Source: Myxococcota bacterium
Lineage (GTDB): Bacteria > Myxococcota_A > SURF-8 > G963663525
DNA length: 64,000 nucleotides
NCBI GenBank assembly: GCA_963676915.2
Contig: CAXXVK010000033.1
Location: 1-64,000, forward strand
Reading direction: 5' to 3'
The number at the start of each line of letters is the position of its first letter. The first letter of the stretch is position 1. This document shows positions 8,921 through 26,596 of the stretch, one piece after another. The position numbers were made by a program, and so were the translations under genes. Below the pieces are notes generated by a model. It was not told the DNA's origin. It was given only the letters and a program-made list of their open reading frames with translations, and searched no databases.

Positions 8921-10069
8921 TTACGCTTTGTTGGCCGCTTCGCGTTCTTTTATCCAGCCATCGATGAAAATCATCACCGGCGAGGCGATGTACACCGAAG
9001 AATAGGTTCCGACCAACACGCCGATCAACAGGGCCAGCGCGAAATCGTGAATGATTCCGCCACCGAAAACGAACAGGCAAACCACCACAACGAGAGTTGT
9101 CAACGAGGTGAGCAAGGTTCTCGACAGAGTTTGATTGATCGACTCGTTGACGACATCCGCCAAGCTGCGAGTTTTTGTTTTGGACAGATTCTCGCGGATG
9201 CGGTCGTAGACGACGATGGTATCGTTTAATGAATAACCCACAATGGTCAACAAAGCCGCAATCGTAGGAATGGTGAACTGCACACCCAGGATAACGAATA
9301 CGCCAACAGTGATCAGTACGTCATGAATCAAGGCAACAACGGCACCCGGAGCAAATACGAGATTGAATCGGAAGCCGATGTAGGCCAGAATCATCACGAG
9401 AGCGAACAGGATGGATTTCAGTCCTTTTTGTTTGAGTTCCGCACCGACTTTCGGACCGACGGAGTCTTCACGTAGCAATTCTGTGCTACCTGCACCGAAT
9501 TTTTCGGAAAGCATCCGGAGGACTTCACCGCTGAGTCCGGCCAGTTGGATTTTATGAATCCAGCGGCCTTCTGCACCTTCAACACTCATGTTGTTGATTG
9601 TGATGTTGTAGGATTCCATTTTCTTGTGCAGTTTTTCCGTATCAACCTTTTTGTCGGTGACGAATTCAAGAAAATCGCCGCCAACGGTTCGGTGACCGAA
9701 GTTACGTAGGTTTTCGGTACTGAACTCGGCTTTGAGGTCCGATTCGATTTTCGTGGCCATTTCGTCGGAAACGAAAGAAATGTTGGATAGTTTGATCAGG
9801 TATTCGTGTTTTCCGTCCACCATTCCGAAATGTTGCACTTCCGGTTCGGGTTTCAATCCGGCAAGGGCGTCGCGGATTTCCGCGCCGCTTACCTCGGCTT
9901 TTTCGAAACGGATCTGCAATTCCGTACCGCCGGAAAAGTCGATTCCGTATTTGAGTCCGACGATCAGCCATAACAGCAGGCTGATACCGACCAGCACAAC
10001 CGATACGATGGCGAACTGCCGTACGTATTTGATGAAGGGAATGTTTAAGTCCGCAGGAACGATCTGCAT
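8921..10069 (-). CDS. secF: Protein translocase subunit SecF
   Basis: GIDFSGG, SVGPKVG, HDVLIT, GYSLNDTIVVYDRIRE and GTYSS motifs. Confidence 0.97.
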   Translation of the reverse strand: MQIVPADLNIPFIKYVRQFAIVSVVLVGISLLLWLIVGLKYGIDFSGGTELQIRFEKAEVSGAEIRDALAGLKPEPEVQHFGMVDGKHEYLIKLSNISFVSDEMATKIESDLKAEFSTENLRNFGHRTVGGDFLEFVTDKKVDTEKLHKKMESYNITINNMSVEGAEGRWIHKIQLAGLSGEVLRMLSEKFGAGSTELLREDSVGPKVGAELKQKGLKSILFALVMILAYIGFRFNLVFAPGAVVALIHDVLITVGVFVILGVQFTIPTIAALLTIVGYSLNDTIVVYDRIRENLSKTKTRSLADVVNESINQTLSRTLLTSLTTLVVVVCLFVFGGGIIHDFALALLIGVLVGTYSSVYIASPVMIFIDGWIKEREAANKA

Positions 10070-10095
10070 TGGGGTCACTCCTTATAAAAACCGCG

Positions 10096-12093
10096 CTAGA
10101 TGCTCAACTTGGCGGGTTTGAATTTAACGATGACGTAATCGATGAACAGCCGTGTAATCACGATGGCGCTGAACATCGAGGAGATGATGCCGACCAGCAG
10201 GGTTACGGCGAATCCCTTGACGGGGCCGGTACCGTAGGTCCACAGAATGAAGCCTGCCAGGGCCGTCGTGACGTTGGCGTCGAAGATGGTCCAGAACGCT
10301 CGGTCATACCCGGATTCCACACTGGCTCTCGGGGTCTTGTTGATGCGCTGTTCCTCGCGGACACGTTCGTTGATGATCACGTTGGCGTCAACGGCCATAC
10401 CTAATGTCAACACGATACCGGCCATGCCGGGGAGTGTCAGGGTGGCTTCGAAGAAGGCCAGCACCGCCATAAGGAAGATCATGTTGCAGACGAGGGCGAC
10501 GTCGGCGAAGATACCCGCCACCCGGTAGTAGATCAGCATGAAAAACACGACCAGCACGAAACCGGCGATAATCGAAATCTTTCCGGATTCGATGGAGTCT
10601 TTACCCAACGTCGGACCGACGGTGCGGATTTCCTCGATTTTTACCGGAGCCTGCAAAGCACCGGCGCGAAGTACGATCGCCAGATCCTGTGCTTCTTCCA
10701 TCAGTTCTCGGTAAGGACGAAGCGCATTCAGCGTGATTTGGGCGCGTCCACCGCCGATTCGGGATTGAATCACCGGGGCCGACTGGACTTTGTTATCCAG
10801 CACGATAGCCATGCGTTCGTGGATGTGATCGCCTGTAACCTGCTCGAATTGCTTGGCTCCCTGGCGGTCGAAGGTCATCGAAACGTAGGGGCGGTTCTGT
10901 CGTTGATCGATATTGACGCGGGCATCGACGATGGTTTCGCCGGTCATGGCCGTCTTACGATCCACAACGTAGGAACGCCAGCGAACGTCCTGACCGATGT
11001 TCGCCTTCTTGATGACTTCTTCCTCAAAAAGCACTTCTTTGTCCGGTCCGACTTTGCCTTTGACCCATTCGCGAATCACGCGGATATTCTTGTTTTCGGG
11101 GTCTTTGACAGCGGTCAGATAAGGAACCGTGGTCAAGCCGCCCTTGGCGTTTCGGGCGCTTTCGCTCTTCAGTTCCCAACCTTCGGGGACTTCGTTTTTG
11201 TGTTGGAACAGCTCGGTGTTGGTGTCGTCGACGATCTTGAATACCAGATGCGCCGTACGGCCGATCAATTCCATGGCGCGTTCGGGGTCTTTGACACCGG
11301 GAATCTGCACCAGAATCGAGCGATCGCCTTGCTTGGCAACCAACGCTTCGCGAACGGCCATTTCGTCGATACGATTACGCAGAGTCTTCAAAACCTGCTC
11401 GACCGCATGATTTTTGCGGTAGGTCTGCAAGTCTTCCGACATCTCGAATGCGATGGTGAAATCCTTATCGGTAGGATTGGGAATCTCCACCATATCGCCG
11501 AAGAATTTGGAAATTTTTTCCTTGGCGGAATCCAGCGTTTCCTTATCGGGGAAGGAAATCGTCATCGCCGGTTTGCCCTCGATTACCCGGATTTCCTTGC
11601 AACCGAGTTTCTCGTCTTCGCAGTAGCGATCCACTTCCTCGGTCATCCGGTCCACGATGTCCACAAGGGCTTTTTCCACCTCGACACCCAATACAAGGTG
11701 AATACCACCTTGGAGGTCGAGACCCAGACTTATTTTCTTGGCATAAAGGCTTTTATACCACGAAGGCAAGATATCCGGCAGACTGAATGCCAGGGTTGTC
11801 TGTCCCGTGGGAATCGTCGGTTCACCCAGGGAAAGTTCCTGGGTCAGCGACTCGCGAGCTTCTTCCATTTTATCGCTGGCCGAAAACGGAACCCGCAGTT
11901 TGCCGTCCGCTTCCGTATACAAAATGGTTCCGCAATCCAAGCCTTTTTCGGTGCAAAAGCTTCCCGCCTGAGCGATTTTCTCGTTGACCTGCTGAGTGTG
12001 GAACCACCCAACGACGGTCGGCACGAGTCCGAAAATCGATAGGACGAGCAACGCTATTACGAGTGCGCTACGCCACCACCATTCACGCGCCAT
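10096..12093 (-). CDS. secD: Protein translocase subunit SecD
   Basis: LGLDLQGG, LRAGAL, VGPTLG, TLPGMAG and GMAVDANVIINERVREE motifs. Confidence 0.97.
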   Translation of the reverse strand: MAREWWWRSALVIALLVLSIFGLVPTVVGWFHTQQVNEKIAQAGSFCTEKGLDCGTILYTEADGKLRVPFSASDKMEEARESLTQELSLGEPTIPTGQTTLAFSLPDILPSWYKSLYAKKISLGLDLQGGIHLVLGVEVEKALVDIVDRMTEEVDRYCEDEKLGCKEIRVIEGKPAMTISFPDKETLDSAKEKISKFFGDMVEIPNPTDKDFTIAFEMSEDLQTYRKNHAVEQVLKTLRNRIDEMAVREALVAKQGDRSILVQIPGVKDPERAMELIGRTAHLVFKIVDDTNTELFQHKNEVPEGWELKSESARNAKGGLTTVPYLTAVKDPENKNIRVIREWVKGKVGPDKEVLFEEEVIKKANIGQDVRWRSYVVDRKTAMTGETIVDARVNIDQRQNRPYVSMTFDRQGAKQFEQVTGDHIHERMAIVLDNKVQSAPVIQSRIGGGRAQITLNALRPYRELMEEAQDLAIVLRAGALQAPVKIEEIRTVGPTLGKDSIESGKISIIAGFVLVVFFMLIYYRVAGIFADVALVCNMIFLMAVLAFFEATLTLPGMAGIVLTLGMAVDANVIINERVREEQRINKTPRASVESGYDRAFWTIFDANVTTALAGFILWTYGTGPVKGFAVTLLVGIISSMFSAIVITRLFIDYVIVKFKPAKLSI

Positions 12094-12992: not shown

Positions 12993-15731
12993 ATGGCGAA
13001 GGACAAGAAGGCTTCCAGCGGCTTTTTCGATAACGCGCCTGTGGAGAAATTGTACGAGCAAACCACGGAGATCGATTCGAAAACTGGAAAATCCGTAAAG
13101 AAGAGTGAAGATCCTGAAATTCTTGGAGAAATTTCTATCTCAAAATCTTCTTCCTCTCAAAGTTCCCCACCTCCCACTCCCAATGAAAACGCTTCATCAT
13201 CGCATGGCGGCACTGTGGAAACGGAAGTGGATGATGCGCTGGATTTTGCCGAAAACTCGTCAAAAACATCCGACTCTCGCTATTTCAACGAAAAAAACGA
13301 AAACTCATTGGCCGACGAACCTACGCATATTCTGGATCTCGAAGAAATCCAGAGCATGCCGGAGATTAAAAGCGCCAAACTCTCTGTGGTCGATGGTCCG
13401 GAGCGCGGCAAGGAATTTCTGGTATCTTATAATGAAATGTTCGGTGGACGCAGTATCGAAAACGATTTCGTGATCTCCGACCTTGCGATTTCCAGGCGAC
13501 ATTTTAGAATCACCCGCCGGATGGAAGATTATATCCTTACCGATATGCAAAGCGGGAACGGAACGTATCTCAATGGCGTTCGTACCCATCAGCAGGTATT
13601 GACAAATAATGACATGATTGTCGTCGGAAAAAGCGTGATTCGATTTACCAATGAACCGACCGATCAACCTGCCGAGGTGAAGAAGTCAGCCAATGAGCAA
13701 GGATTTCCGCCGCCGCCGCAGACTTCCGAAGCGACAGCTCCACCACCGGCTCCAACATCTCCAACACCTCCTCCGGTCGCTAACCAGGCAACTGAGGAAT
13801 CTGCTAGTGGGAAAAAGACCTTGGAAATGGAGTCGTTGGACAGCGGGGAGAAATCTCAACCAGCGGAGCCTAAAAAGACCGAACAGAAGAAAACCTCGCC
13901 AGATCCAGCCAAGGTCGAGGCGAAGCCTGAACCCAAGAAAACCCAAGAAATGGGGAGTATGGAGCTTGAAAAGAAGGATGTGGTTCCTCCAAAGACCGAT
14001 CTTCCTCCTGCTCCGCCTCCAATGAAGGATGAACCGAAAAAAACACTGGATATGAATCGTATCGAGGATAGTCAGCCGACGCCTGACGTTTCAAACGTAA
14101 CGCCTCCTCCATCCTATAAAAAGAAAACGAAGGGGACCAAGGTTTCAGAAAAGCCGAAGATTAAGCGGACAAAAACCCAGGAAGAATTCGTACGATCGTT
14201 GGAGCAAGAGACTCTCAATGCCGTGGATACTGCTCCCGCTGAAATCAGTTTAAAAACCTCGGTTCCTCCCCAAAGAGCCGAGGAAAAGAAACCTCTACCA
14301 AAGTCTTCAGAAGAACCGACCTTTGTGCAGACTCGCAGTCCCCGCCAACCGGTGACGCCGGGCACTAAGCCGGAGAAAGAAGGGTCGGGTGGCTTGATTA
14401 TTGCCGTGGTTGTGGCGTTGGTTGCCGTGATTTCTGTAGGTGCTATCGTTCTGCTCAACCAGCAGAAAAGTGCACCGAAACCGGCCCCCATTGCGGAAGA
14501 AGCCGCACCGAAAGTCGATCCTACAGAGGCAAAAGTCAAAACCCTGATGGAGCAAGCGCGAATTCAGTTGAAAAACGATATGTTCGATCGCGCTATTGCG
14601 AAATGCGAGCAAGCTCTCCAGTTGTCCGCCAATAACACGGATGTGCTTCAGCTCAAATCGTGGATCGCCAAGGAACAGCGTTTCAAGGAAATCGTCGAAA
14701 CTGCCGAAACCCGGCTGGCGGCAAGTGATCCGCAGGATAGTTACGAGGCATTGAAAGAAATTTCTAACGAATCCAAATATCACGGACAGGCTGTTGAGTT
14801 GATCGCCAAGTTCGATTCGTTAGCGTGGCAAAAACAGGTGGATGAAGCCGATAAACTGATGAACCGGCGGAAATACAACGAAGCGCTTGAAATCGTTAAC
14901 AGCGTTCTTGTCCAAAAACCGGGACATATTCAGGCTCAGAGGATCAAAATCATCTGCGAGGCGAAGCTTGCCAACAAAATTGTGGTGGCGGCCCCTTCGA
15001 AACATGCCGAACCGGAACCTGCCCAAGAACCGACACCCCCGAAGCCTGCGTCACCGCCTCCCGCAAAAACCGAACCGGCCAGTCCTCCTCCTGCACCGAA
15101 ACCCGTTGCCTCTGCTCCTCCCAAGGAAAATCGTGACGGTATGCACGTTACAGGTCAATCGGATCTGAGAATGCCGATTCGGAGTTTCCGCAAGCAGAAA
15201 ATCAGCGATGCAATCGACGAAGCTCGTGCAATTTCAACTGGTTGGGGACATCAACCGACCATTCGTGAGGCGTCGAGCCTATTGAAAAAACTGGAATCTT
15301 TCAAAAGAGACTGGAATACAGGACGAAATGCCGCCGACGACAGCAACGCCAACAAGGCGATTCCTGCATTGAAAAGTGCTTGGGCTACCGCACGGGAGAT
15401 TTCGAAAGACTCCGAGTATGAAAAAGATATTCGGAAAATGCTTGGAAACATGTACTACACCCTCGGCAAAGGTTTCGAAGACCAGAAAGAGTGGAGTAAA
15501 GCGGCCAAATCGTACAAACGAGCGTTAACGGCCAATCCGGGGCACGTGCGTGCTTCCAGAGCGATGGAAGAGTTGGAAATCACGGCGAAAAAGCTGTACT
15601 ATAAAGGTTTAGCTGCCAAAAACAGCGACCCGGACGAAGCCAAAACCCATTGGCGGACCGTCAAGCAACTCGTGTCGAAGAAAAGCAAGTGGTATCGCAA
15701 AGCCGATGAAGGGCTGAAAAAGCTGGAGTGA
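12993..15731 (+). CDS. FHA domain, Pro/Lys-rich linker, single TM and TPR repeat protein
   Basis: FHA motifs GRSIEND..ISRRH..SGNGTYLNG; low-complexity linker; TM IIAVVVALVAVISVGAIVLL; C-terminal TPR-like helices. Confidence 0.85.
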   Translation: MAKDKKASSGFFDNAPVEKLYEQTTEIDSKTGKSVKKSEDPEILGEISISKSSSSQSSPPPTPNENASSSHGGTVETEVDDALDFAENSSKTSDSRYFNEKNENSLADEPTHILDLEEIQSMPEIKSAKLSVVDGPERGKEFLVSYNEMFGGRSIENDFVISDLAISRRHFRITRRMEDYILTDMQSGNGTYLNGVRTHQQVLTNNDMIVVGKSVIRFTNEPTDQPAEVKKSANEQGFPPPPQTSEATAPPPAPTSPTPPPVANQATEESASGKKTLEMESLDSGEKSQPAEPKKTEQKKTSPDPAKVEAKPEPKKTQEMGSMELEKKDVVPPKTDLPPAPPPMKDEPKKTLDMNRIEDSQPTPDVSNVTPPPSYKKKTKGTKVSEKPKIKRTKTQEEFVRSLEQETLNAVDTAPAEISLKTSVPPQRAEEKKPLPKSSEEPTFVQTRSPRQPVTPGTKPEKEGSGGLIIAVVVALVAVISVGAIVLLNQQKSAPKPAPIAEEAAPKVDPTEAKVKTLMEQARIQLKNDMFDRAIAKCEQALQLSANNTDVLQLKSWIAKEQRFKEIVETAETRLAASDPQDSYEALKEISNESKYHGQAVELIAKFDSLAWQKQVDEADKLMNRRKYNEALEIVNSVLVQKPGHIQAQRIKIICEAKLANKIVVAAPSKHAEPEPAQEPTPPKPASPPPAKTEPASPPPAPKPVASAPPKENRDGMHVTGQSDLRMPIRSFRKQKISDAIDEARAISTGWGHQPTIREASSLLKKLESFKRDWNTGRNAADDSNANKAIPALKSAWATAREISKDSEYEKDIRKMLGNMYYTLGKGFEDQKEWSKAAKSYKRALTANPGHVRASRAMEELEITAKKLYYKGLAAKNSDPDEAKTHWRTVKQLVSKKSKWYRKADEGLKKLE

Positions 15732-16265: not shown

Positions 16266-16877
16266 TCAATTCGTGAAATAAAGAATCAAAGCAACCACGC
16301 CAGCGAGAATCAAAGCCAGAACCAGACGTTCGGCGATTTTCAAACCTTTATTCTCTGGCGCTTTCTTTTTAGATGTTTTTGTAGTTTTTACAGGTCGAGA
16401 TATCCGTTCGACATCCTTTTGATGTTCGAGGATAACGGTTGCTTCTTTTTCCTCTTTGGATACTTCTTCATCGCTGTCTTTTAGGGTTTGATCGTCACCA
16501 GGGCTCGCGTTTTCAAGTTTCGGCGGTGTGTTCTCCGGAACGTCGAACTCTGCCGTTTCTTCATCCGAGAGAGTCGATTCTTCTTCCGATAAATGACGGA
16601 TCTCGATTTCGTAATCTCCGATACCAAGGACATCGTGTTCACGCACAAGAGTTTTGCGAACCACACGGTCCCCGTTGACGAAAACACCCCGGTAACTATC
16701 CTGATCGACGACGTATACTTCGTCTTTTTCTTTCAGCAATTGCGCGTGGTAGCGGGAAATGTTCCGTTCCATGAATTGAATGAGGTTGTCGCTGGACCGA
16801 CCGATGGTCAACACATCGTAAAGAAAGGGAATGTTTCGGATGTTTCCCTCGCTGTCGGTAATCACAATTTGAATCAT
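16266..16877 (-). CDS. FHA domain protein with C-terminal TM anchor
   Basis: IGRSSDN..NISRYHA..SYRGVFVNG FHA motifs; acidic linker; C-terminal hydrophobic helix. Confidence 0.85.
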   Translation of the reverse strand: MIQIVITDSEGNIRNIPFLYDVLTIGRSSDNLIQFMERNISRYHAQLLKEKDEVYVVDQDSYRGVFVNGDRVVRKTLVREHDVLGIGDYEIEIRHLSEEESTLSDEETAEFDVPENTPPKLENASPGDDQTLKDSDEEVSKEEKEATVILEHQKDVERISRPVKTTKTSKKKAPENKGLKIAERLVLALILAGVVALILYFTN

Positions 16878-17021: not shown

Positions 17022-17037
17022 TGGCAGGAATTTTGCA
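17022..17037 (+). promoter_or_regulatory. Putative sigma54 (-24/-12) promoter upstream of the radical SAM gene
   Basis: TGGCAGGAATTTTGCA, GG-N10-GC spacing, in the intergenic region. Confidence 0.55.
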
Positions 17038-17299
17038 ACATTATATACTGGATTTTTAGTAAAGGCGTTTTTCCTGATCGATTGAATGTTTGATTGGTGT
17101 GATTGTCGTAACGCGAAACATCGTGAAATTTTCAGTGGTTGCGACGAAGCTTTGTTTCTGGACTGAGCCATCGTTTTGTTGGTATTGCTTTTTTACGTAG
17201 GACAGAACGCCAGTTTACTCCGTCAACGAGAAGAAAAAACTGTGAAGTAAACCTGACGATCGAGTAATTTGTCAGTTTATCTTGACATTTCAGGTGAAC

Positions 17300-18432
17300 A
17301 TGAAAGCGATATTGCACCTAACACAACAATGTAACTTACGATGTCGGTACTGTTATGCGGCAAAAGGGAACCGCCCTTCGATGTCGATGGAAACCGCACG
17401 TAAGGCCATTGATCTTGCGATTAAAAGTGGAAAAAATTCGGCTTGTATTTCCTATTTCGGCGGAGAACCACTGCTCGCTTTCGATAAAATCCGTACGCTG
17501 ACCGACTATGCCAAGCAGCAAGGTCGAAAAGCCGGAAAAAAGATGTATTTTCGCCTGTCTACGAATGGTACGCTACTTAACGAGGAAATTCTTCAATTTT
17601 GTCGCGACAACGAAATACTTTTCGCTCTTTCTCTCGATGGAGATCAAGAAGCCCACGACGCCCAACGCCCCACTGCTGAAGGAACGGGGAGTTTTGAAGC
17701 CATCGATTCGAAACTGGACATGATTCTCTCGCTGAATCCCTATACGGTGTTTGTTTCGGTGATCACGCCTCGCAACGCCGGGCGGCTGTTGTCTTCCGTC
17801 GAATACATGTGGGAACGAGGGATTCGCTACATGGTGCATCAGACCGCATTTTCCGACCCGAGTTGGGATAGGGAATCGTTCGAAATCCTGCGCCAAAGCT
17901 ACGTTGAGTTGGCGAAATGGTATATCGATGCCACGAGGAGCGGAGAGCCGTTTTTCCTGCATATGTTCGACGACAAAATCAAAACCCATGCTCATGCGCC
18001 GGTGAAACTGGACAAGTCTGCGATTTCGGGTTGAGGAAGTTTTCTGTCGCGCCGGATGGTCGTTGTTTTCCCTGTGTGCAATTCGTTTCCGATAAAAAAG
18101 AAGCCGAGGACTACTGCATCGGTCATGTGGATACAGGGTTTACTAAGCGTCGGGAAGAGTTGATCGCAGAAAACCGCAAGCCGCGAGAATCTTGCAAAGG
18201 TTGTGTGTTTCAGGGACGTTGCGCAAACTATTGCGGCTGTATGAACTGGCAGACCACCGGGAGCGTAACCGGGGTTTCTCCGCTCTTGTGCGAGCACGAA
18301 CGAATGGTGATTCCCATTGCCGACGAGATCGGGAATCTCCTGTGGAAAGAAAAAACTCCATTGTTTATTGATAAGCATTACAAATATATCGGAACTTATT
18401 TGGAGGAAATCTCGGCCTACGGGATCGATTGA
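17300..18432 (+). CDS. Radical SAM protein with C-terminal SPASM domain (apparent frameshift near 18010)
   Basis: CNLRCRYC, GGEPLL, TNGTLL and SLDG..AHD motifs; SPASM CDFG..DGRCFPC..CKGC-x5-C-x3-CGC..C in ORF 17917..18432; restoring one G at CTG-GGA-CAA joins the frames. Confidence 0.9.
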
Positions 18433-18493
18433 CCTTTTCGATTGTCCCGAAACGCTGGAAATTTCCAGGATCGAAATGGAAGGAAGGTACAAA

Positions 18494-19621
18494 ATGTCGT
18501 CAAATTCTCCCTTCAAGCTCGAACCCGTCAAAAGGTATCGAAACGCGGTGTATGCCTCGGAATCCGGGGAAAGCATTATCGGACGCGCCTGTTGGCTGGC
18601 CTGGACGTTTCCTCGGAAAATCGTCAAGGGGGCGGTGACCTTGCTATTGGCGGCTGGCTTGGCGTTGGGAACGGGCTGCATGGAGAATGACGCCGCTGTG
18701 AGCTATCAACCGGACCAGGGAGATGAAGACACGGAGCTTGAAGAATCAATCGAAGCGGATGACGACTATTGGTACCCAGAGACGGCGGGAGTGGAATACG
18801 AATGTTCTTCCGGCGACTTTTACTGTATCGAGAATCGATCCGTAGCCATTTGCGAGGGCGGCACATACCTACAATATGAATGCGATGCTTTTTGCGAAAG
18901 CGCCTATGGGGAAGGCTATGTTTCCGATGGCTGCAACGCGCAAGATCCCGACGATTTCTGCTCCTGTGTGGAAAAAAATTGTATTGAAGACGGTCCGGTG
19001 GCTTGTGACGAAGACGGACAGTTGGTAACCTGTGAAGAGGGTGAACTCAAGACGGTTTCCTGCTGGAACGAGTGCCCGCCGTACCCGGAAGAAGATTATT
19101 CTTTGGCTCTCGTCGATGCGTATTGCGATGACGATGCGGAAGGTCTGTGTGTCTGTGAATACGATACTTTCGACGGTGGAATGTACGAATGCTATCCTGA
19201 AGATAAACAGTGCAAAGACTCAAATACCCTGTTGGTCTGCAACGATGATTTTTACTATGAGGAAATCTCCTGCGAAGACTACTGTGCTCAGGAGTTTGGA
19301 CCGGAATATTTCTCCTGGGGTTGCGATATCGAGGCTGAAGACCCCTGCCAGTGCGAATACGGTATGACGCCCGGAATCATCGCTTCTTGCACACCCGGAG
19401 AAGTCTATTGTCCCAGCCTTCAGCATGTGGCGATTTGCGAAGCGGGAATGGATGCGCACATGATCTTTACCTGCGAGGAATACTGCGTTCGGTATTTCGG
19501 TGAGGACGCTTATCCCACAGAAGCATGTGACGAGACGAATTCCTCGAACGTATGTAGTTGTGAGACAGGAATGATCGATGGAGACATGGCGCGGGTGCTG
19601 CCCTCGGACCTGAAAAAATAA
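18494..19621 (+). CDS. Cys-rich, acidic repeat lipoprotein with long N-terminal leader; candidate substrate of the adjacent rSAM/SPASM enzyme
   Basis: RBS GGAAGG; about 40-aa extension before the hydrophobic helix; lipobox-like LGTG-C62; four 8-Cys repeats. Confidence 0.85.
   Translation: MSSNSPFKLEPVKRYRNAVYASESGESIIGRACWLAWTFPRKIVKGAVTLLLAAGLALGTGCMENDAAVSYQPDQGDEDTELEESIEADDDYWYPETAGVEYECSSGDFYCIENRSVAICEGGTYLQYECDAFCESAYGEGYVSDGCNAQDPDDFCSCVEKNCIEDGPVACDEDGQLVTCEEGELKTVSCWNECPPYPEEDYSLALVDAYCDDDAEGLCVCEYDTFDGGMYECYPEDKQCKDSNTLLVCNDDFYYEEISCEDYCAQEFGPEYFSWGCDIEAEDPCQCEYGMTPGIIASCTPGEVYCPSLQHVAICEAGMDAHMIFTCEEYCVRYFGEDAYPTEACDETNSSNVCSCETGMIDGDMARVLPSDLKK
18803..19561 (+). repeat. Four tandem protein-level repeats of about 60-70 aa, 8 Cys each
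   Basis: C-x6/7-C-x8-C-x9/11-C-x3-C-x12/16-C-x7/8-C-x-C pattern counted four times in the translation. Confidence 0.85.
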
Positions 19622-19951: not shown

Positions 19952-21091
19952 ATGAAAATGAAACAGCCGTTTTCCGTTAGTGCCAACGGTACGATGATCG
20001 GGCTGGCCCTCTTTTTTTCGTTGCTGGTCATGTTTGCTTTGTGGCAACTGGATTCTCCGAAAGAGAAGGAATCTCCTTCCTCCGATACGGTTTCCTCTAC
20101 GTCCACTCCTAAAAAAGAGGATTGGTTCGAGTATAAAAAAAGCCTGTACCACGGAATTCCTTCTCGGATTCTGTTTCGTTTCGAACATCGAGACGAAGCA
20201 CGGGCGACGGAGTTGTCCCGAAAAGCTTGGGAAGAGTTCGAGCGGATCGGCCAGGTATTCAATCCTTTCGATCCCCAAAGTGAAACCGGAAAACTGAACC
20301 GAAGGACATCTTCGAAAGGCGTTCGTGTCTCGGAGGATGTTCAAAAGGTTTTGCAGGATATCGCGACGCTTTACAAGGCATCGGAAGGAGCTTTCGATCC
20401 TACGTTGTGGCCGATCAAACGTTTATGGAGAGATGCCGTAGAAAGGCAAAGAATTCCCAAGGACGAAGAACTGGCCGAAGCGGTCGAGAAAACGGGATTC
20501 GACAAGGTTCACGTATACGAGGAAGGATTCCCGAAACTCGATCTCGATCGGGATGACTTGACGTTCGATTTCGGAGGAATCGCCAAGGGATACGCCGTGG
20601 ATCGCGTTCGTAACCTGCTTAAAGCCGAAGGCGCTGGGGCGGGGCTTGTGCAGTGTGGTGGGGAAATTGCCACATTCGGTGAAAAATCCGATGGCTCCTG
20701 GGTGATTGGCGTACAGCATCCCAAAGATTTACGTGCCTTGTGGGGAACGGTGAATTCCAAGACGGAGTTGCGTGTCTCCACCAGCGGAAACTATCGACAG
20801 CCGTTGTTGATTGGTGAAAAACGTTTTTACCACATTTTCGATCCAAGAAATGGTCGTCCCGTGCAGGAGAAAATCGCAGGGGTGACGGTCGCCAGTTTCG
20901 ACGCGAACGTTTCCAACGCTCTGCTCGATGCATTGGCAACCTCCATAACAGTGCTTGGATCGAAAAAAGGTTTGGAATTGGCGAAGCATTTCGGCGTGGA
21001 AGCCCTGATTCTCGTAAACGACGGAGATAGCCTCGTGGAAGTCGTCAGCGACGGTTTCGCCAGCCATTTCCGAAAAAGGAAGCATTCCTGA
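19952..21091 (+). CDS. apbE: FAD:protein FMN transferase ApbE
   Basis: GAFDPT, DFGGIAKGYAVD, GGEI, STSGNY, YHIFDP and DALAT motifs; N-terminal TM. Confidence 0.93.
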   Translation: MKMKQPFSVSANGTMIGLALFFSLLVMFALWQLDSPKEKESPSSDTVSSTSTPKKEDWFEYKKSLYHGIPSRILFRFEHRDEARATELSRKAWEEFERIGQVFNPFDPQSETGKLNRRTSSKGVRVSEDVQKVLQDIATLYKASEGAFDPTLWPIKRLWRDAVERQRIPKDEELAEAVEKTGFDKVHVYEEGFPKLDLDRDDLTFDFGGIAKGYAVDRVRNLLKAEGAGAGLVQCGGEIATFGEKSDGSWVIGVQHPKDLRALWGTVNSKTELRVSTSGNYRQPLLIGEKRFYHIFDPRNGRPVQEKIAGVTVASFDANVSNALLDALATSITVLGSKKGLELAKHFGVEALILVNDGDSLVEVVSDGFASHFRKRKHS

Positions 21092-21552
21092 TGATCGCCA
21101 AAGGAAAAGTCATAGCTCATAGTGGGGAGTTGGCGACGATCAAGGTTTGCCATGGGGAATATTGCGTAGGTTGCGGGATGCACGATCCGACCCAGACCCA
21201 TGTAGAATTCGAAGCGGAAGATCCTATTGGCGTCGAAGTGGGGCAGCATGTGGAGTTCGAAGCCAAAAAAGGGCGAATGTTCTTTGCCGTCTTGCTGGTT
21301 TTCTGGCTGCCGCTTTTGTTTCTGGCTTTGGGAGCCGGAATCGGGTATGGATTCGCGTCGGCGCTGGAAATGACGAATAGTTGGTTGCCGATAATCTTCA
21401 CGGCTGTGTTTTTCGTACTGGGGATCGTGATTGTATATTTCGTGGGGAAAAAGACCAAGGCTGGAGCGGGAATGGTCGTGCTGCGTGTTGTACCCGCCGG
21501 ATCGGCCTGTCATCATAAAACAGGGGAACGCGAAACCGAGGCTGCAACGTAA
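21091..21552 (+). CDS. rseC: RseC/MucC-like membrane protein
   Basis: C..YCVGCG cluster, G-x-x-V-G-Q-x-V motif, two TM helices; position between apbE and rnfC. Confidence 0.75.
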   Translation: MIAKGKVIAHSGELATIKVCHGEYCVGCGMHDPTQTHVEFEAEDPIGVEVGQHVEFEAKKGRMFFAVLLVFWLPLLFLALGAGIGYGFASALEMTNSWLPIIFTAVFFVLGIVIVYFVGKKTKAGAGMVVLRVVPAGSACHHKTGERETEAAT

Positions 21553-21597
21553 CGTCTTGGAATCGTAGCACTTCGACCATCGCGGAAGGATGGTTCT

Positions 21598-22920
21598 ATG
21601 GCTCATACATTCAGAGGTGGGGCGAGCGTAAAGCACGAAAAACATCGGACCGAGGGTAAACCCATTGAACGGATGCCCTGTCCGTCGTTGCTGATGATTC
21701 ATACCGTGCAACATATCGGAGCGCCCAATCAGCCCCTTGTTGAAAAAGGGGACGAAGTGAAAAAGGGGCAGAAACTCGCGGGAGCCGAGGCTTTCGTTTC
21801 TGCGCCCGTGCATGCTCCGAGTTCGGGAATCATTAAGGAAATCAAGGATGTGGTGCATCCCGTACTTGGAAAGGGCAGGGCGATCATCCTGGAAACCGAT
21901 GGTCGTGACGAATGGGCCGAAGGTCTTCCCGCCGATCGGGATTGGAAAACGATGGACGCCCAAGCGCTTCGGGATGCTGTGAAAGAAGCCGGAATCGTCG
22001 GTTTGGGTGGAGCGACGTTTCCCACACACGTTAAAATCACACCGCCGGAAGACATGACCATCGAGCATCTGTTGATCAACGGGGCCGAATGCGAGCCTTA
22101 TTTGACCAGCGATGACGCTATTATGCGGGAGCGTTCGGAAGATATCGTTATCGGGATCGAAATCCTTCAAAAAGTACTCGGTGCGAAAGACGTGGCGGTG
22201 GGTATCGAAAACAACAAGCCCCATGCCATCGATATCATGACCAAAGCATGTAAAAGACTGCCCGATTGCCGGGTTGTAGCGCTGCCGTCCAGATATCCGC
22301 AAGGTGCGGAACGAAGCCTGATCAAAGCACTGATCGGTAAGTGGCTTCCTGGAGGAAAACTGCCGATGTCCATCGGTGTCGTGGTGCAGAATACGACGAC
22401 CTGTGCCTCTATCGCCGATGCGGTGATACGTGGAATTCCAATCCTTGAAAAAGTGGTAACCGTCTCTGGCGAATGTGTGACCGAGCCGAAAAATGTGCTT
22501 GCGCCCATCGGAGCGACCTGGAAAGACCTGCTCGATTTTTGCGGTGGGCTTAAAGAAGAACTCGGTCGCCTTGTCATGGGTGGTCCCATGATGGGAATTT
22601 CTCAGAACGGATTCGATATCCCATTGGTCAAAGGGACCAGCGGTCTGCTGGCCTTGTCTAAAAAGGAAATCGAACGAAAAGAGGAAGGCCCGTGCATTCG
22701 TTGCGGCAATTGCGTCAAATCCTGCCCTATGGGATTGGAACCGCTGGACTGGCCGGTATTGGCTCGCAAGCGAAAATGGACGGAAGCAGAGGAAAAACGG
22801 GTGCTTGAATGTGTGGAGTGCGGTAGCTGCGAGTATGTATGTCCGGCGAATCGCCACATCTTGCAGTCCGTAAAACTGCTCAAAACGAGCGTTCGGGATA
22901 TGCAGCGAGAGAAAAAATAA
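21598..22920 (+). CDS. rnfC: Rnf electron transport complex subunit C
   Basis: QHIGAP, GIVGLGGATFPTHVK, NGAECEPYLTSD, YPQGAE, MGGPMMG and two CxxCxxCxxxCP clusters. Confidence 0.96.
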   Translation: MAHTFRGGASVKHEKHRTEGKPIERMPCPSLLMIHTVQHIGAPNQPLVEKGDEVKKGQKLAGAEAFVSAPVHAPSSGIIKEIKDVVHPVLGKGRAIILETDGRDEWAEGLPADRDWKTMDAQALRDAVKEAGIVGLGGATFPTHVKITPPEDMTIEHLLINGAECEPYLTSDDAIMRERSEDIVIGIEILQKVLGAKDVAVGIENNKPHAIDIMTKACKRLPDCRVVALPSRYPQGAERSLIKALIGKWLPGGKLPMSIGVVVQNTTTCASIADAVIRGIPILEKVVTVSGECVTEPKNVLAPIGATWKDLLDFCGGLKEELGRLVMGGPMMGISQNGFDIPLVKGTSGLLALSKKEIERKEEGPCIRCGNCVKSCPMGLEPLDWPVLARKRKWTEAEEKRVLECVECGSCEYVCPANRHILQSVKLLKTSVRDMQREKK

Positions 22921-23009
22921 TACGAGTGTGTCCTTGTTGAGTGTGTCGGACTTTACGATTCGAGGTAGTTCGGCTGTTTTATCCAATTTTGGATCAAAAA
23001 GGAGGAGTG

Positions 23010-23507
23010 ATGAAAACGAAATGGTGGATGATGATGTTGGTGCTGTTCTCGGTTCTGGCGTTGGCCGTGGGTTGCGGCGACGATGACGACGACGAACCGG
23101 GTGGAGATACCGATCAGGTCGTGGGCGATGAGGACAACACGACCGGTGGTGACGAAGATGTAACGGCAGGTGATGAGGATGAAGTCACCGAAGAGGCTAC
23201 CGAAGAGGAAGCCGAAGAGCAAGGCGAGCCGTTGCAGTGTTCCGATCCCCTGATCATGGACGGTGGTTATGGCGGTCTGATGGAAACCGACTGCGATACC
23301 ATCGTTGGTGCCTGCGAGAACGCATTGACCGATGGCGATGCTTATTATCCCTGCGTGGATGATCCCGACTGTTGTTGCAATCCCGATGGAACCTCGTTCG
23401 ATATCGGTGGCGGCACGATGGCTTATCCCTGCGAAAACGATTCCTGCACGGATGATGGCTACTGCGATTCGACCTGCCCGGATACCGTCGATCCGGACTG
23501 TCAATAA
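23010..23507 (+). CDS. Asp/Cys-rich lipoprotein inserted between rnfC and rnfD
   Basis: Strong RBS AAGGAGG; lipobox LAVG-C followed by GDDDDD; GDED repeats; 12 further Cys including CCC and DGYCDSTC..DPDC. Confidence 0.85.
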   Translation: MKTKWWMMMLVLFSVLALAVGCGDDDDDEPGGDTDQVVGDEDNTTGGDEDVTAGDEDEVTEEATEEEAEEQGEPLQCSDPLIMDGGYGGLMETDCDTIVGACENALTDGDAYYPCVDDPDCCCNPDGTSFDIGGGTMAYPCENDSCTDDGYCDSTCPDTVDPDCQ

Positions 23508-23518
23508 GCTTGGACCGT

Positions 23519-23550
23519 TTCCGGGTGGGAACGTTGTTTCCCACCCGGAA
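23519..23550 (+). terminator. Perfect 13-bp hairpin inside the rnf operon (attenuator or mRNA stabiliser)
   Basis: TTCCGGGTGGGAA-CGTTGT-TTCCCACCCGGAA followed by only TTT. Confidence 0.6.
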
Positions 23551-23573
23551 TTTCCAACGGAAAGGGGCATTTC

Positions 23574-24602
23574 ATGGCGGAACCGACCCCCGTTGCCGCG
23601 CAGCACGAGGACAGGCTGTATGCTTCGTTGCTGACCGTCGCGAGCGCTCCCCATGTCAAGGCGAAGGAAACGATTCCAAAAATCATGTGGACCGTTAATG
23701 CCACCCTGTTGCCTGTGGCAGCTTGGGCGGTGTATGTGTTCGGTCTGCGTGCGCTATGGCAGATGCTGCTTTGCACGGCTACGGCGATGGCGACCGAAGC
23801 TGTTATCCAGAGAATACGTGGAATGAAGCGAAGTTGGTGGGATGGCAGCGCCTTCTTGACCGGCTTGCTGCTGGCCATGTGCATTCCCGTGGGGTTGCCG
23901 TTCTGGATGTCGGTGTTGGGTGTCGTGTTTGCCATTTCCATTGTCAAACATGTTTTCGGAGGGTTGGGGCAGAACATTTTCAACCCCGCTCATGCCGGAC
24001 GGGCGTTTTTGTTGGCTTCGTTCCCGGTGCAGATGACCACATGGTCAGTGATGACCTCGAAAGCCGCCGGAGCTGTTGACGGCGTGACGACCGCGACTCC
24101 GTTAGGTATTTGGGGCGAGCACGGCATGAAAGCGCTGCTCGATACGATGGGTAGCCGAAGCGAATTGTATGCTTCCCTGTTTTTCGGTCAGGTCAATGGT
24201 TCCATCGGCGAAGTGTCGGCGTTGCTGATTTTGCTCGGTGGAGCAGTGTTGATTTTCAAACGCTATATTTTCTGGCAGGGACCGGTGTTTTACATCGGTA
24301 CTGTCGCTCTTTTAGGTTGGATTCTAGGTGGTCCCGGTTGGTTTGACGGCGATCCGCTGTTTCATGTCCTGTCCGGTGGCCTGATGATCGGTGCGTTCTA
24401 CATGCTTACCGATATGGTGACCTCACCGGTAACGGCTCGGGGGCAGATCATTTTTGCCGTCGGTGCGGGAATTCTGGTGATTCTGATTCGGCGTTTCGGT
24501 GGGTATCCCGAGGGGGTGTGTTACTCGATTTTGTTGATGAACGCCGTTACTCCGCTGATCGATCGTTTTATCAAGCCTGCCCAGTTCAAGGAGGAATCAT
24601 GA
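23574..24602 (+). CDS. rnfD: Rnf complex subunit D
   Basis: FGGLGQNIFNPA, FMN site DGVTTATPL, GSIGEVS, TDMVTSP and YPEGV motifs. Confidence 0.96.
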   Translation: MAEPTPVAAQHEDRLYASLLTVASAPHVKAKETIPKIMWTVNATLLPVAAWAVYVFGLRALWQMLLCTATAMATEAVIQRIRGMKRSWWDGSAFLTGLLLAMCIPVGLPFWMSVLGVVFAISIVKHVFGGLGQNIFNPAHAGRAFLLASFPVQMTTWSVMTSKAAGAVDGVTTATPLGIWGEHGMKALLDTMGSRSELYASLFFGQVNGSIGEVSALLILLGGAVLIFKRYIFWQGPVFYIGTVALLGWILGGPGWFDGDPLFHVLSGGLMIGAFYMLTDMVTSPVTARGQIIFAVGAGILVILIRRFGGYPEGVCYSILLMNAVTPLIDRFIKPAQFKEES

Positions 24603-25225
24603 GCGCCGAAGCCCATGCAAGTCATGCTCCGCAGGATGAGGCGGGGATACTCCGAATTGCTCTCAATCTGGGGGCAGCGGGAATGCTGGCCGGGGTGATT
24701 CTGGCCACTGTGAATTATTTTACACAGCCGATTCGGCTGGAAAACGAGCGTATCGCTCAGGAAAATGCCCGCAAAACCGTGTTGCCTGCCGCCGAAACGT
24801 TTCAGGTTATCGAAGGTCTGAACGGCTGGTTTTATGGTCTGGACGCCAAAGGCAACAGTGTGGGGTACGTGCTACCCGTTGTCCAACGTGGGTACGACGG
24901 AAACATCCACATGACCCTCGGTGTAGACAAGGCGTTTTCGGTGGTGGACTACAAGATCCTTAAGGATCGTGAGACCCCCGGGCTTGGGGCGAAGGCCAAA
25001 GAACCGTTTTTCCGCGAGCGTTTCAAGGGAAAAACAAAGGATCAACTCGATGTCGACAAAGTACCGGTAGAGGGCAAAATCCTGGCGATTACCGGGGCGA
25101 CGATCACATCCCGTGCCATTGCCAACGGCATCAAGAGCAACCTCGAAACGTTGGAAAAACTGGCGTCGGAGGATTTCAAAAACATTCCGGCTGAGATGAA
25201 AAAGGGAGGGGGAACGCATGAGTGA
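24599..25225 (+). CDS. rnfG: Rnf complex subunit G
   Basis: GYDG, ETPGLG and FMN site AITGATITS; ATGA overlap with rnfD. Confidence 0.93.
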   Translation: MSAEAHASHAPQDEAGILRIALNLGAAGMLAGVILATVNYFTQPIRLENERIAQENARKTVLPAAETFQVIEGLNGWFYGLDAKGNSVGYVLPVVQRGYDGNIHMTLGVDKAFSVVDYKILKDRETPGLGAKAKEPFFRERFKGKTKDQLDVDKVPVEGKILAITGATITSRAIANGIKSNLETLEKLASEDFKNIPAEMKKGGGTHE

Positions 25226-25940
25226 GTTGCAAACCCTGAACCCCGTAACCCAGGAAACCTTGCCTTTCCGTGGTTCGAGACAGACCACGTTGAGAGGATT
25301 GGTACGGGACGGCATTTTAAGCAAAAATCCCGTGTTCGTGCTGGCGCTTTCGCTTTGTCCTGCCGTGGCGGTGACAAGTGAAGTGAAGACCGCTTTCGGC
25401 ATGGGTGTGGCGGTGCTTTTCGTTATTAGTTTCAATAACTTGTTTACGTCGATTTTCCGCAACGTGATTCATCCGAAGGTCAAGGTTCCGGCTTATATTT
25501 CGATCATCGCTACGCTGGTGACGCTTTCTCAGCTATTCATGTCGGCCTTTTTTCCAGGCTTGTATGCCGATCTCGGGGTTTATCTGGCTTTGATCGTCGT
25601 GTTCGCCATCATCCTGGCTCGTGCCGAGGTCTTCGCTTCGAAAAATACCCCGCTTCCGGCCTTTATGGATGGGTTGGGGATGGGCTTGGGCTTTTTAACG
25701 GCCATGGTGATTACCGGTGGTATTCGGGAACTTCTCGGAACCGGCACGTTTTTAGGTTATCCCGTGTTCGGTGAACACTACCAGCCGATTTTGATGGTGA
25801 TTCTCGCTCCCGGCGGATTCATTACCATCGGGTTGTTGATCGGTCTGTTTCGGACGTTGGGAGATTGGCTGGACAAGCGAAAGGTTGCGGCAACGGTTCA
25901 ACGGGAAACCGCAAGCGGCGAGGAGGTGAGCCATGGGTGA
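25218..25940 (+). CDS. rnfE: Rnf complex subunit E
   Basis: NPVFVLALSLCPAVAVT, RAEVFA and IRELLGTG motifs. Confidence 0.93.
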   Translation: MSELQTLNPVTQETLPFRGSRQTTLRGLVRDGILSKNPVFVLALSLCPAVAVTSEVKTAFGMGVAVLFVISFNNLFTSIFRNVIHPKVKVPAYISIIATLVTLSQLFMSAFFPGLYADLGVYLALIVVFAIILARAEVFASKNTPLPAFMDGLGMGLGFLTAMVITGGIRELLGTGTFLGYPVFGEHYQPILMVILAPGGFITIGLLIGLFRTLGDWLDKRKVAATVQRETASGEEVSHG

Positions 25941-26526
25941 GGCATTTCTCGAATATGCGGCGCTGTTTTTGTCGGCTGTGTTGATCAACAATTTCGTTTT
26001 GACGCGCTTTTTGGGGCTTTGCATCTTTTTTGGCGTGTCGAAAAGTTTCGATGCCAGTGCGGGAATGGGAATCGCGGTCACGGCGGTGATGGTTATTGCT
26101 TCTCTGTTGGGGTGGCTCGTTTACTATATGGTGCTGATTCCGCTGGAGTTGGAGTTTTTCACGACGATCTGTTTCGTGATCATCGTGGCATCCACCGTCC
26201 AGATGCTGGATATCGTGACACGAAAATTCGTACCGACATTGCACGCCATGTGGGGAATTTACCTGATGTTGATCGCCACCAACTGCGTGGTGCTGGCCAT
26301 TCCGCTGATCAATGTCGAGAACGGTTTTTCCTTTTTCAAATCCCTGGTTAACAGTGTGGGTGCGGGTGTCGGTTTTGCGCTGGCGATGATCCTGATGTCC
26401 AGCATTCGCGAAAAACTGCAATACAGCGACGTTCCCAAACCTTTCGAAGGTTTGGGGATCGCTTTTGTGACGGCCGGGCTTTTGTCATTGGCCTTTCTGG
26501 GCTTTTCCGGCATGATTGCCGTATGA
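25933..26526 (+). CDS. rnfA: Rnf complex subunit A
   Basis: NNFVLTRFLGLC, LIATNC, IREKL and LAFLGFSG motifs. Confidence 0.94.
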   Translation: MGEAFLEYAALFLSAVLINNFVLTRFLGLCIFFGVSKSFDASAGMGIAVTAVMVIASLLGWLVYYMVLIPLELEFFTTICFVIIVASTVQMLDIVTRKFVPTLHAMWGIYLMLIATNCVVLAIPLINVENGFSFFKSLVNSVGAGVGFALAMILMSSIREKLQYSDVPKPFEGLGIAFVTAGLLSLAFLGFSGMIAV

Positions 26527-26596
26527 ATTTCGTTTCGTAAGTTTTTTCAAGAACTTGTCGAAACGGAACGACGAACGGGTAACGTAGGAGATCGAC

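Follow-up and report, generated by a model that had tools for sequence, protein, structure and literature searches.

How does a radical S-adenosylmethionine (SAM) enzyme find an exported protein, and what might it do to it? Radical SAM/SPASM maturases are mostly known for small peptide natural products, peptides made by the ribosome and then modified after translation (RiPPs), and for finding their substrates through a RiPP recognition element (RRE). The question is raised by two adjacent genes at positions 17,300–19,621 of the forward strand of contig CAXXVK010000033.1 from a Myxococcota bacterium, of which the first 64,000 nucleotides (the window) were analysed. One gene encodes a radical SAM/SPASM maturase and the other a 375-residue exported, lipoprotein-like pre-protein, referred to as the partner. 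Sequence comparison indicates that the enzyme and an exported partner carrying an N-terminal tag, the handle, form a conserved two-gene cassette. We propose, with moderate confidence, that the cassette is a RiPP-like system in which the maturase selects an exported pre-protein through a leader located ahead of the export signal.

The enzyme gene starts with an ATG at 17,300 (N-terminus MKAILHLTQQCNLRCRYCY), ends with a stop codon at 18,430–18,432, and is read in two frames of the plus strand. The N-terminal part (17,300–18,010, frame 2) contains the radical SAM core, including the CxxxCxxC motif CNLRCRYC at residues 11–18 (17,330–17,353), up to a frameshift at 18,010–18,011. The C-terminal part (18,010–18,432, frame 1) contains the SPASM domain with eight conserved cysteines, with the set C-x12-G-x4-C ... 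C-x2-C-x5-C-x3-C ... C, followed by a C-terminal extension of about 45 residues. The Pfam model Radical_SAM (PF04055) matches the enzyme with 61.2 bits against a cut-off of 29.5, and the SPASM model TIGR04085 with 29.7 bits against a cut-off of 27; the Pfam SPASM model gives 16.6 bits, which is below its cut-off of 21.5. The enzyme lacks an N-terminal RRE: it begins at the radical SAM core, and its alignment to the maturase CteB (5wgg) starts only at CteB residue 100. The two genes are separated by a spacer of 61 base pairs (18,433–18,493, plus strand) with the sequence GGAAGG at 18,482–18,487, six nucleotides before the ATG of the partner. A scan for promoters and terminators returned fewer sites than were found in shuffled sequences and nothing above chance. 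The motifs, domain scores and coordinates bear out the initial annotation, made from the sequence alone, which had described an RRE-less radical SAM/SPASM gene with these cysteine motifs 61 base pairs upstream of a 375-residue protein with four repeats.

The partner gene (18,494–19,621, plus strand) encodes an N-terminal region of 45 residues, a hydrophobic segment, Cys62, an acidic linker, and four blocks of eight cysteines with near-identical spacing. The hydrophobic core of the signal peptide (approximately residues 46–61) together with Cys62 (codon 18,677–18,679) is encoded at 18,629–18,679 and ends in the lipobox-like sequence L-G-T-G-C. The glycine at position −3 departs from the canonical [LVI][ASTVI][GAS]C, so that the name lipoprotein, used in the initial annotation, is a putative assignment. 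The corresponding sites of orthologues include V-S-A-C, L-I-A-C, V-M-A-C, and V-A-A-C, but also S-P-S-C. The blocks, delimited by cysteine positions and spacings, comprise residues 104–158 (18,803–18,967), 163–221 (18,980–19,156), 233–287 (19,190–19,354), and 299–356 (19,388–19,561), all on the plus strand, and their cysteine spacings are 6,8,9,3,12,8,1; 7,8,9,3,16,7,1; 6,8,10,3,12,7,1; and 6,8,11,3,13,8,1. They contain 32 of the 34 cysteines, the remaining two being C33 and C62 past the hydrophobic segment. The mature part consists of 25.2% aspartate plus glutamate and 7.6% tyrosine. Neither Pfam nor NCBIfam has a match for any partner examined, that of the window included. An AlphaFold2 model of the window partner has a mean pLDDT (the predicted score in the local distance difference test) of 69.6, approximately 80 over the repeats, and a helix at residues 41–58; a Foldseek search of the repeats against the PDB gave nothing at E ≤ 0.001. 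A chitin-binding-like fold was considered for the repeats and rejected, because the VIA-align Z scores of 3.7–3.9 to small disulfide domains (Der p 23, CBM14) are within noise; the best Z score of the window partner, 4.4, belongs to its N-terminal helices.

The pairing of the two genes is conserved. Among nine genomes of the same genus or order, seven contain an orthologue of the enzyme at E ≤ 5e-95, and the two without it are 79% and 86% complete. Homologues of the window partner are encoded directly downstream of the radical SAM gene in six related genomes (loci L081–L086), and one more match, N-terminal only (residues 5–68), adjoins a paralogous radical SAM gene. The neighbourhoods of more distant enzymes were read in 80 loci from metagenome-assembled genomes (MAGs), and a tree was built from 86 radical SAM open reading frames (ORFs), from which the two loci of the window itself, the duplicate L094, and every match with a span below 280 residues had been removed. 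In this tree, 27 enzymes form one clade with a Shimodaira–Hasegawa-like approximate likelihood ratio test (SH-aLRT) support of 97, and the SPASM cysteine columns are kept in all of them. A hidden Markov model (HMM) built from the N-terminal piece shared by the partners was run over all six frames of 96 loci, and it matched only ORFs adjoining the radical SAM gene. Within the clade, a neighbour with the motif is found at E < 1e-4 in 21 loci and as a weak match in one; the remaining five were resolved by eye or BLAST. The motif is present in L009 (PVKCRKPPEYP) and L021 (VKVQPVIYSKKPKYP), degenerate forms occur in L018 and L088, and the partner in L013 is truncated by the end of the contig. An adjoining partner is present in 27 of 27 members, which is the outcome of the test proposed in the initial annotation, whether homologues lie beside signal-peptide proteins with the same leader. 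Outside the clade, none of 59 radical SAM genes has a strong match to the handle beside it.

Depending on the lineage, the partner gene is upstream or downstream of the enzyme gene; the two invariably share a strand, and a second copy of the partner is frequent. Inspection of 20 loci with flanks of 6 kb revealed no third conserved gene; an apparent second cluster of neighbours was an antisense frame of the radical SAM gene. The pairing of handle and enzyme recurs in at least seven phyla, Myxococcota to Bacillota among them. A sister clade from Verrucomicrobiota has a shorter P-x-Y-P tag just before the signal peptide in seven of ten loci inspected, two from Akkermansia MAGs included. In these two (L045:5647–5973 and L059:5544–5933), a very short K-x-x-x-P-x-Y-P directly precedes the hydrophobic segment, which is followed by low-complexity cargo rich in lysine, proline, and glutamine.

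The handle is the element common to partners across phyla. It comprises residues 5–24 of the window partner (SPFKLEPVKRYRNAVYASES; 18,506–18,565, plus strand), as delimited by the motif HMM, the alignment, and the predicted interface with the enzyme, and it lies ahead of the hydrophobic core of the signal peptide. Its consensus is F-K-φ-x-P-φ-K-R-Y-x-x-A/P-x-Y-P/G-S. The sole invariant residue in 25 aligned partner N-termini is a tyrosine, which corresponds to Tyr20 of the window partner (codon 18,551–18,553, plus strand; SPFKLEPVKRYRNAVY). The handle HMM has one match among the 55,358 frames of at least 50 residues in the window's own genome (E 6.5e-8), with the next at E 0.1. A search of 1.84 billion representative proteins with the handle profile retrieved 423 clusters at E ≤ 0.001, 51 of them at E ≤ 1e-10, and in nearly all of the 150 matches listed the profile aligns at or near the N-terminus. 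The 2,656-residue Ig-repeat protein P0257 from this search was set aside as a chance match. The handle core is present in 147 of the 150 listed matches, and these are the 147 representatives to which the following counts refer. The residue two positions before the tyrosine is proline in 111 and alanine in 36, the tyrosine is directly followed by proline in 130, and serine or threonine comes next in 103, which gives the core [P/A]-x-Y-P-[S/T]. Compared with the X-Y-G motif at which spliceases excise tyramine, the handle tyrosine is followed by glycine or alanine in the order to which the window belongs but by proline in the 130 representatives just mentioned; when the residues after the last C-x-C of the 8-Cys repeats were tallied over four positions, EYG was the commonest start (18 of 56 detected repeats). 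A cysteine follows the hydrophobic segment in 93 of the 147 representatives, as judged by a loose pattern. A Tat signal was considered as a general feature, as some partners from the sister clade have R-R-x-F-L after the tyrosine, and rejected, because it occurs in only six of the 147.

By contrast with the handle, the mature domains of the partners fall into unrelated groups, which include the Cys repeats, an alpha/beta domain ending in ...WLKxQGVI, a Saprospiraceae type, and acidic low-complexity sequences, and no motif shared among the cargo domains was found. The partners range in size from 175 to 550 residues. In the mature part, 114 of the representatives have two cysteines or fewer, some have none, and 12 have ten or more. 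Partners with 8-Cys repeats are rare: 5.8 billion clusters contain 15 homologues, 14 of which have the handle, and P0133 does not. A link between partner and enzyme through the repeats is not supported by these counts, by the repeat protein without a handle, or by the position of the only invariant residue in the handle. The proposal of the initial annotation, that the two-gene unit makes a modified repeat lipoprotein, survives in so far as the unit is conserved and a modified exported protein, not a small RiPP, is the likeliest class of product, but not in the role given to the repeats. The acidic 8-Cys repeats are most simply a lineage-specific cargo with four disulfides per repeat outside the cell. 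The ...WLKxQGVI domain was modelled with a pLDDT of 73.9, and its best Foldseek match has an E-value of 0.047. A PD-(D/E)XK nuclease fold was rejected for it, because the several such matches at VIA Z scores of 4–6 and the best score overall, 5.8, are below the meaningful level; top matches in the ESM Atlas are only clusters automatically named 'hypothetical protein', with no common Pfam family. In the 682-residue protein P0281, enzyme and handle are fused in a single chain with a transmembrane segment that lacks a lipobox cysteine and with a '...WARSQGGS' partner-type domain. This layout would keep the enzyme at the membrane and put the partner domain on the outside.

The binding of the handle to the enzyme has been predicted using P0002, an intact 377-residue orthologue from the same genus, and residues 1–46 of the partner, with three 4Fe-4S clusters and SAM added, in three runs and three controls. 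The ipSAE score is 0.88 in all three runs, whereas the best control reaches 0.00; at least 83% of the contacts agree between runs, and the pLDDT of the partner is 57–59. The partner side of the predicted interface is formed by residues 5–15 and 17–24, which is exactly the conserved handle. The enzyme side of the model includes residues 189–194 and 227–234, the AuxII loops (298–304 and 326–335), and the helix past the last SPASM cysteine (339–350 and 361). In the model, Tyr20 contacts residues 345, 346, and 349 of this C-terminal helix. The C-terminal stretch, with a median of 45 residues in the clade, extends past the end of the profile of PapB, the best-scoring named family. Interface residues W189, E334, D342, L348, F356, and Y361 are kept in 27 of 27 clade enzymes and are mostly different in 31 unrelated radical SAM enzymes, save L348, which is kept in 19 of them. 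No co-variation of residues 345, 346, and 349 with the residue following the tyrosine was detected beyond that expected from phylogeny. The closest solved enzyme–peptide complex is that of CteB, which uses an RRE; recall of this complex is an unlikely source of the docking score, because the window enzyme has no RRE. Conserved pairing, handle, and predicted docking are in silico results.

The enzyme belongs, by profile and structure comparison, to a PapB-like, RRE-less group for which NCBIfam has no model and which takes in the clade of 27, its sister clade, and a Fibrobacter clade. Its N-terminal half has 635 relatives, the closest of which are 373–378 residues long, come from Myxococcota-type MAGs, and are labelled 'radical SAM protein' or not at all. 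The top NCBIfam match of P0002 is the PapB family of freyrasin-type ranthipeptide maturases (NF047865). The score of 215 bits falls 125 bits short of the cut-off of 340, and the alignment spans the whole 330-position profile from the radical SAM core through the SPASM domain. Against the same model, the two halves of the window enzyme score 175.7 and 36.7 bits, intact orthologues 205.7–215 bits, and seven further relatives 198–235 bits. P0002 reaches none of the curated NCBIfam cut-offs: it scores 156 of the 425 bits required for the SCIFF maturase (TIGR03974), 137.5 of 453 for QhpD (TIGR03906), 95.9 of 349 for anSME (TIGR03942), and only 57–83 bits with the FxsB, YhhB, and GrrM models. For TIGR04463, the CrpC type, the window N-terminal half gives 61.2 bits and the relative L005 88.5 bits, with a cut-off of 525. 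No splicease family is present among the 25 best matches of P0002 or among the matches at E ≤ 1e-20 of seven relatives. The nearest solved structure is CteB (5wgg/5why; E 1.8e-35), and the top NCBIfam matches are peptide or protein maturases throughout. Grouping with anSME or heme enzymes, which the initial annotation had named as a result that would speak against its proposal, is not observed, nor is grouping with QhpD.

Features of the cassette are found separately in several known systems. The PapB family resembles it most in sequence; however, the partners of the window type are exported proteins of 175–550 residues instead of short peptides, most lack a cysteine donor, and the handle precedes a signal peptide. 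CteB, a SCIFF thioether maturase, shares the radical SAM and SPASM layout, but has a domain of about 100 residues, presumably the RRE, before the aligned part, whereas the window-type enzyme has about 45 extra residues at its C-terminus. The maturase anSME, which is of similar size and also lacks an RRE, and QhpD are radical SAM/SPASM enzymes that act on proteins bound for export. They differ from the window type in family scores and in context, as the window contains neither a sulfatase nor a quinohemoprotein gene. The initial annotation was right in this respect: the two PF00884 matches of the genome are on other contigs (C10 and C68), and no PQQ, mycofactocin, or quinohemoprotein gene turned up in general Pfam and NCBIfam scans of the neighbours, in which only FHA, ApbE, RseC, and Rnf proteins were recognized. 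The CrpC/CrpA pair described in 2026 comes close, as the radical SAM/SPASM enzyme CrpC introduces ranthionine crosslinks into a full-size repeat protein encoded next to it, at the target motif C-x-x-Q/D and with a conserved N-terminal region of CrpA aiding engagement (PMC13692751). CrpC differs in having an RRE and in its membership of TIGR04463, and the accessible part of the article mentions no export signal in CrpA (PMC13692751). DAG-RiPPs are RiPP–lipoprotein hybrids in which a cytoplasmic enzyme modifies a precursor with a lipoprotein signal peptide that is then processed by the lipoprotein pathway (PMC13056109). Their enzymes are MNIOs, neither 'radical' nor 'rSAM' appears in the text consulted, and recognition is through a C-terminal motif and expected by the authors to be leader-independent, whereas the window type has a leader-like handle before the signal peptide (PMC13056109). 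The match to such a hybrid is one of architecture, an enzyme with a lipoprotein-type precursor; lipidation and modification are putative in the cassette. No description of the cassette was found among the papers listed in the literature searches, and the accessible part of PMC8939145 is not relevant to it. Protein-modifying radical SAM/SPASM enzymes (anSME, QhpD, and CrpC) and RiPP–lipoprotein hybrids are known already. A radical SAM family tied to exported proteins by a leader ahead of the signal peptide, the predicted docking without an RRE, onto the SPASM face and a C-terminal extension, and the single invariant tyrosine appear to be new.

We infer from the pairing, the handle, and the docking model that the partner is modified, and what follows on the site and chemistry of the modification and on the fate of the handle is inferred likewise. 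Enzymes of the radical SAM superfamily need SAM and reduced Fe-S clusters; therefore, the enzyme would act in the cytoplasm. The handle probably stays cytoplasmic as well, because it comes before the export signal's hydrophobic core. The enzyme would recognize the pre-protein by the handle of about 20 residues at its extreme N-terminus, which would dock on the SPASM (AuxII) face and the clade-specific C-terminal extension in replacement of the missing RRE. A SAM-dependent radical modification of the pre-protein in the cytoplasm may follow. The product would then be exported, and the handle would be lost along with the signal peptide, which signal peptidase II would cleave off in partners with a lipobox.

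As the cargo domains show no relationship to one another and the handle contains the only invariant residue, we favour a tyrosine-centred modification within or beside the handle, at the invariant tyrosine of [P/A]-x-Y-[P/G/A]-[S/T], over a conserved target in the cargo. That this tyrosine, in the cytoplasmic n-region of the signal peptide, is the true target is put forward only tentatively. The Y-P-S/T core of the handle recalls the aromatic-x-residue motifs of cyclophane-forming SPASM enzymes, and the reaction could be the formation of a Tyr-x-Ser/Thr cyclophane or another tyrosine-centred radical change to which the cargo is indifferent. The modified signal peptide might serve as an export-licensing checkpoint or be released as a modified product. 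It is alternatively conceivable, though rather unlikely, that the handle is a leader only and the chemistry takes place in the cargo, which in the window lineage would introduce Cys-to-Asp/Glu thioethers (ranthionines) or tyrosine-centred changes into the 8-Cys repeats and produce a cross-linked surface lipoprotein, in line with the initial annotation. The end-to-end match to PapB, the structural proximity of the thioether-forming CteB, and the leader-like placement of the handle on the enzyme surface in the model argue for this alternative, as does the precedent of ranthionines in the Cys-rich protein CrpA (PMC13692751). However, thioethers of cargo cysteines cannot be the chemistry of the whole family, because 114 of the 147 representatives have at most two mature cysteines. 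The lack of a motif common to the cargo domains, the even number of cysteines per repeat as expected for disulfides in an exported protein, the repeat protein P0133 without a handle, and the missed PapB cut-off also speak against it. PapB substrates have cysteine donors near aspartate or glutamate acceptors, and the window partner has both in plenty; for its lineage, thioethers in the repeats are possible. An unmodified partner is improbable: in that case the handle would tether or regulate the enzyme at the membrane, or the enzyme would hold the pre-protein back from export in the manner of a Tat chaperone, with the real substrate elsewhere. In favour of this reading, the handle in the model lies over the AuxII loops, on a side commonly linked with electron transfer, and is not seen to enter the active site; the fusion P0281 would anchor the enzyme at the membrane, and the 20 loci with long flanks contain no other conserved neighbour. 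By contrast, the nearest named families are all peptide or protein maturases, no alternative substrate gene is conserved nearby, and a short conserved peptide with an invariant tyrosine is what a site of recognition or modification typically looks like.

Several points weigh against a maturase that acts through the handle, for which the evidence is in silico throughout. The docking is a prediction in which the pLDDT of the partner is below 60. The calibration of the tool, in which the ipSAE mark is reached by 116 of 157 solved complexes and two of 215 mismatched pairs, is only roughly valid here, because the alignments and ligands used were our own and outside the calibration. Distances to SAM or the clusters are not part of the docking output, which therefore does not distinguish a role of Tyr20 as the target from one in binding alone. 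The closest named relatives of the enzyme, PapB, the SCIFF maturase CteB, CcpM, and QhpD, make cysteine thioethers, and the abundance of cysteine, aspartate, and glutamate in the window partner fits thioethers in the cargo of the window lineage. We know of no precedent for a modification on the n-region of a signal peptide. The same-genus genome G001 (L097:5299–6618) and genome G004 (C2:1622030–1622215) encode a second, orphan handle-bearing 8-Cys repeat lipoprotein far from the single radical SAM gene of the genome; in G001 it lies among genes for a TamB-like protein and for membrane proteins. The genome of the window yielded no such second copy. The orphans weaken the rule that handle and enzyme are always adjacent and are compatible with action in trans; the second copies suggest that one enzyme serves several partners. 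Finally, the enzyme gene is broken in this assembly, and the cassette is either switched off here or mis-assembled.

The enzyme gene does not have an uninterrupted reading frame, because of a one-nucleotide deletion at 18,010–18,011. Frame 2 ends in ...HAPVKL and reaches a stop at 18,032–18,034, while frame 1 goes on as GQVCDFGLRKFSVAPDGRCFPC..., and intact orthologues read ...PVKLGQ(I/V)CDFG... across this point. In the DNA alignment with the same-genus orthologue, one G is gone from a G run (CTG-GGA there, CTGGA here), so that both alignments confirm the frameshift noticed in the initial annotation. A programmed frameshift has been rejected, because there is no slippery heptamer at 18,002–18,012 and the orthologues are uninterrupted. 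One public sequencing run, containing 0.86 of the sampled words and possibly made from the source sample, has the region as Logan contigs at a depth of about 3; none of these contigs covers 17,985–18,009, and the frameshift is unbridged. That the gene is a true pseudogene, with the lipoprotein made without its maturase and the cassette decaying, is a substantial possibility that falls somewhat short of probable. The deletion splits the ORF at residue 237, ahead of the first SPASM cysteine, the site without a slippery heptamer is in line with a loss of function, and the genome has one handle-bearing protein versus two in G001. However, the deletion is the sole lesion: identity to the orthologue is 78% in the N-terminal half and 82% in the C-terminal half, neither half contains a further stop, and the partner ORF is intact. 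The deletion is in a short G run, and other MAGs have frameshifts as assembly errors would produce them. In the Sedimentisphaerales MAG L019 (6600–6800), a G run of the radical SAM gene is likewise one G short, which splits the gene at the homologous codon for the conserved glycine just before the first SPASM cysteine; this could reflect chance, a place prone to errors in both assemblies, or a mutational hot spot. In the Phycisphaerae MAG L008 (4790–6000), the partner gene shifts frame between the handle and the hydrophobic segment. The broken copies in these MAGs and in the window look more like assembly errors than biology, although they are unexplained.

Upstream of the cassette, the window encodes two FHA-domain proteins (12,993–15,731, plus strand, and 16,266–16,877, minus strand), one of which, 912 residues in length, combines extended Pro/Lys-rich linkers with a transmembrane segment and TPR repeats. 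Further upstream (8921–12,093) are the genes for SecD and SecF. Directly after the cassette, at 19,952–27,505 on the plus strand, are genes for ApbE (a transferase of flavin mononucleotide) and for an RseC-like protein, together with a complete Rnf cluster (RnfC, D, G, E, A, and B-like), all of which are not conserved beside the radical SAM gene in other lineages. Between rnfC and rnfD (22,941–23,507, plus strand) there is a second acidic, Cys-rich, lipoprotein-like ORF of 188 residues, with a signal ending in L-A-V-G-C followed by an Asp run; it has no Pfam or NCBIfam match and no handle. In genomes of the same phylum (L092, L093, and L096) and in L075, L077, and L078, a different clade of radical SAM enzymes is encoded beside peptides of about 100 residues with the core ...CC.SFAPGWEV...CPW...CYW..., which is probably a separate system of the RiPP type.

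That a tag recurs in front of the export signal suggests that exported proteins are marked for modification in a manner not described before. If the enzyme modifies its partners, the cassette would represent a new mode of recognition, with the leader bound on the SPASM face and the C-terminal extension, and a new logic of maturation, in which the leader is removed by an ordinary signal peptidase. The modified proteins at the cell surface would form a new class, represented in phyla from Myxococcota to Bacillota. If the invariant tyrosine is the target, a post-translationally modified signal peptide would occur in at least seven phyla. The cassette provides a testable enzyme–partner pair for possible new radical chemistry on an invariant tyrosine.

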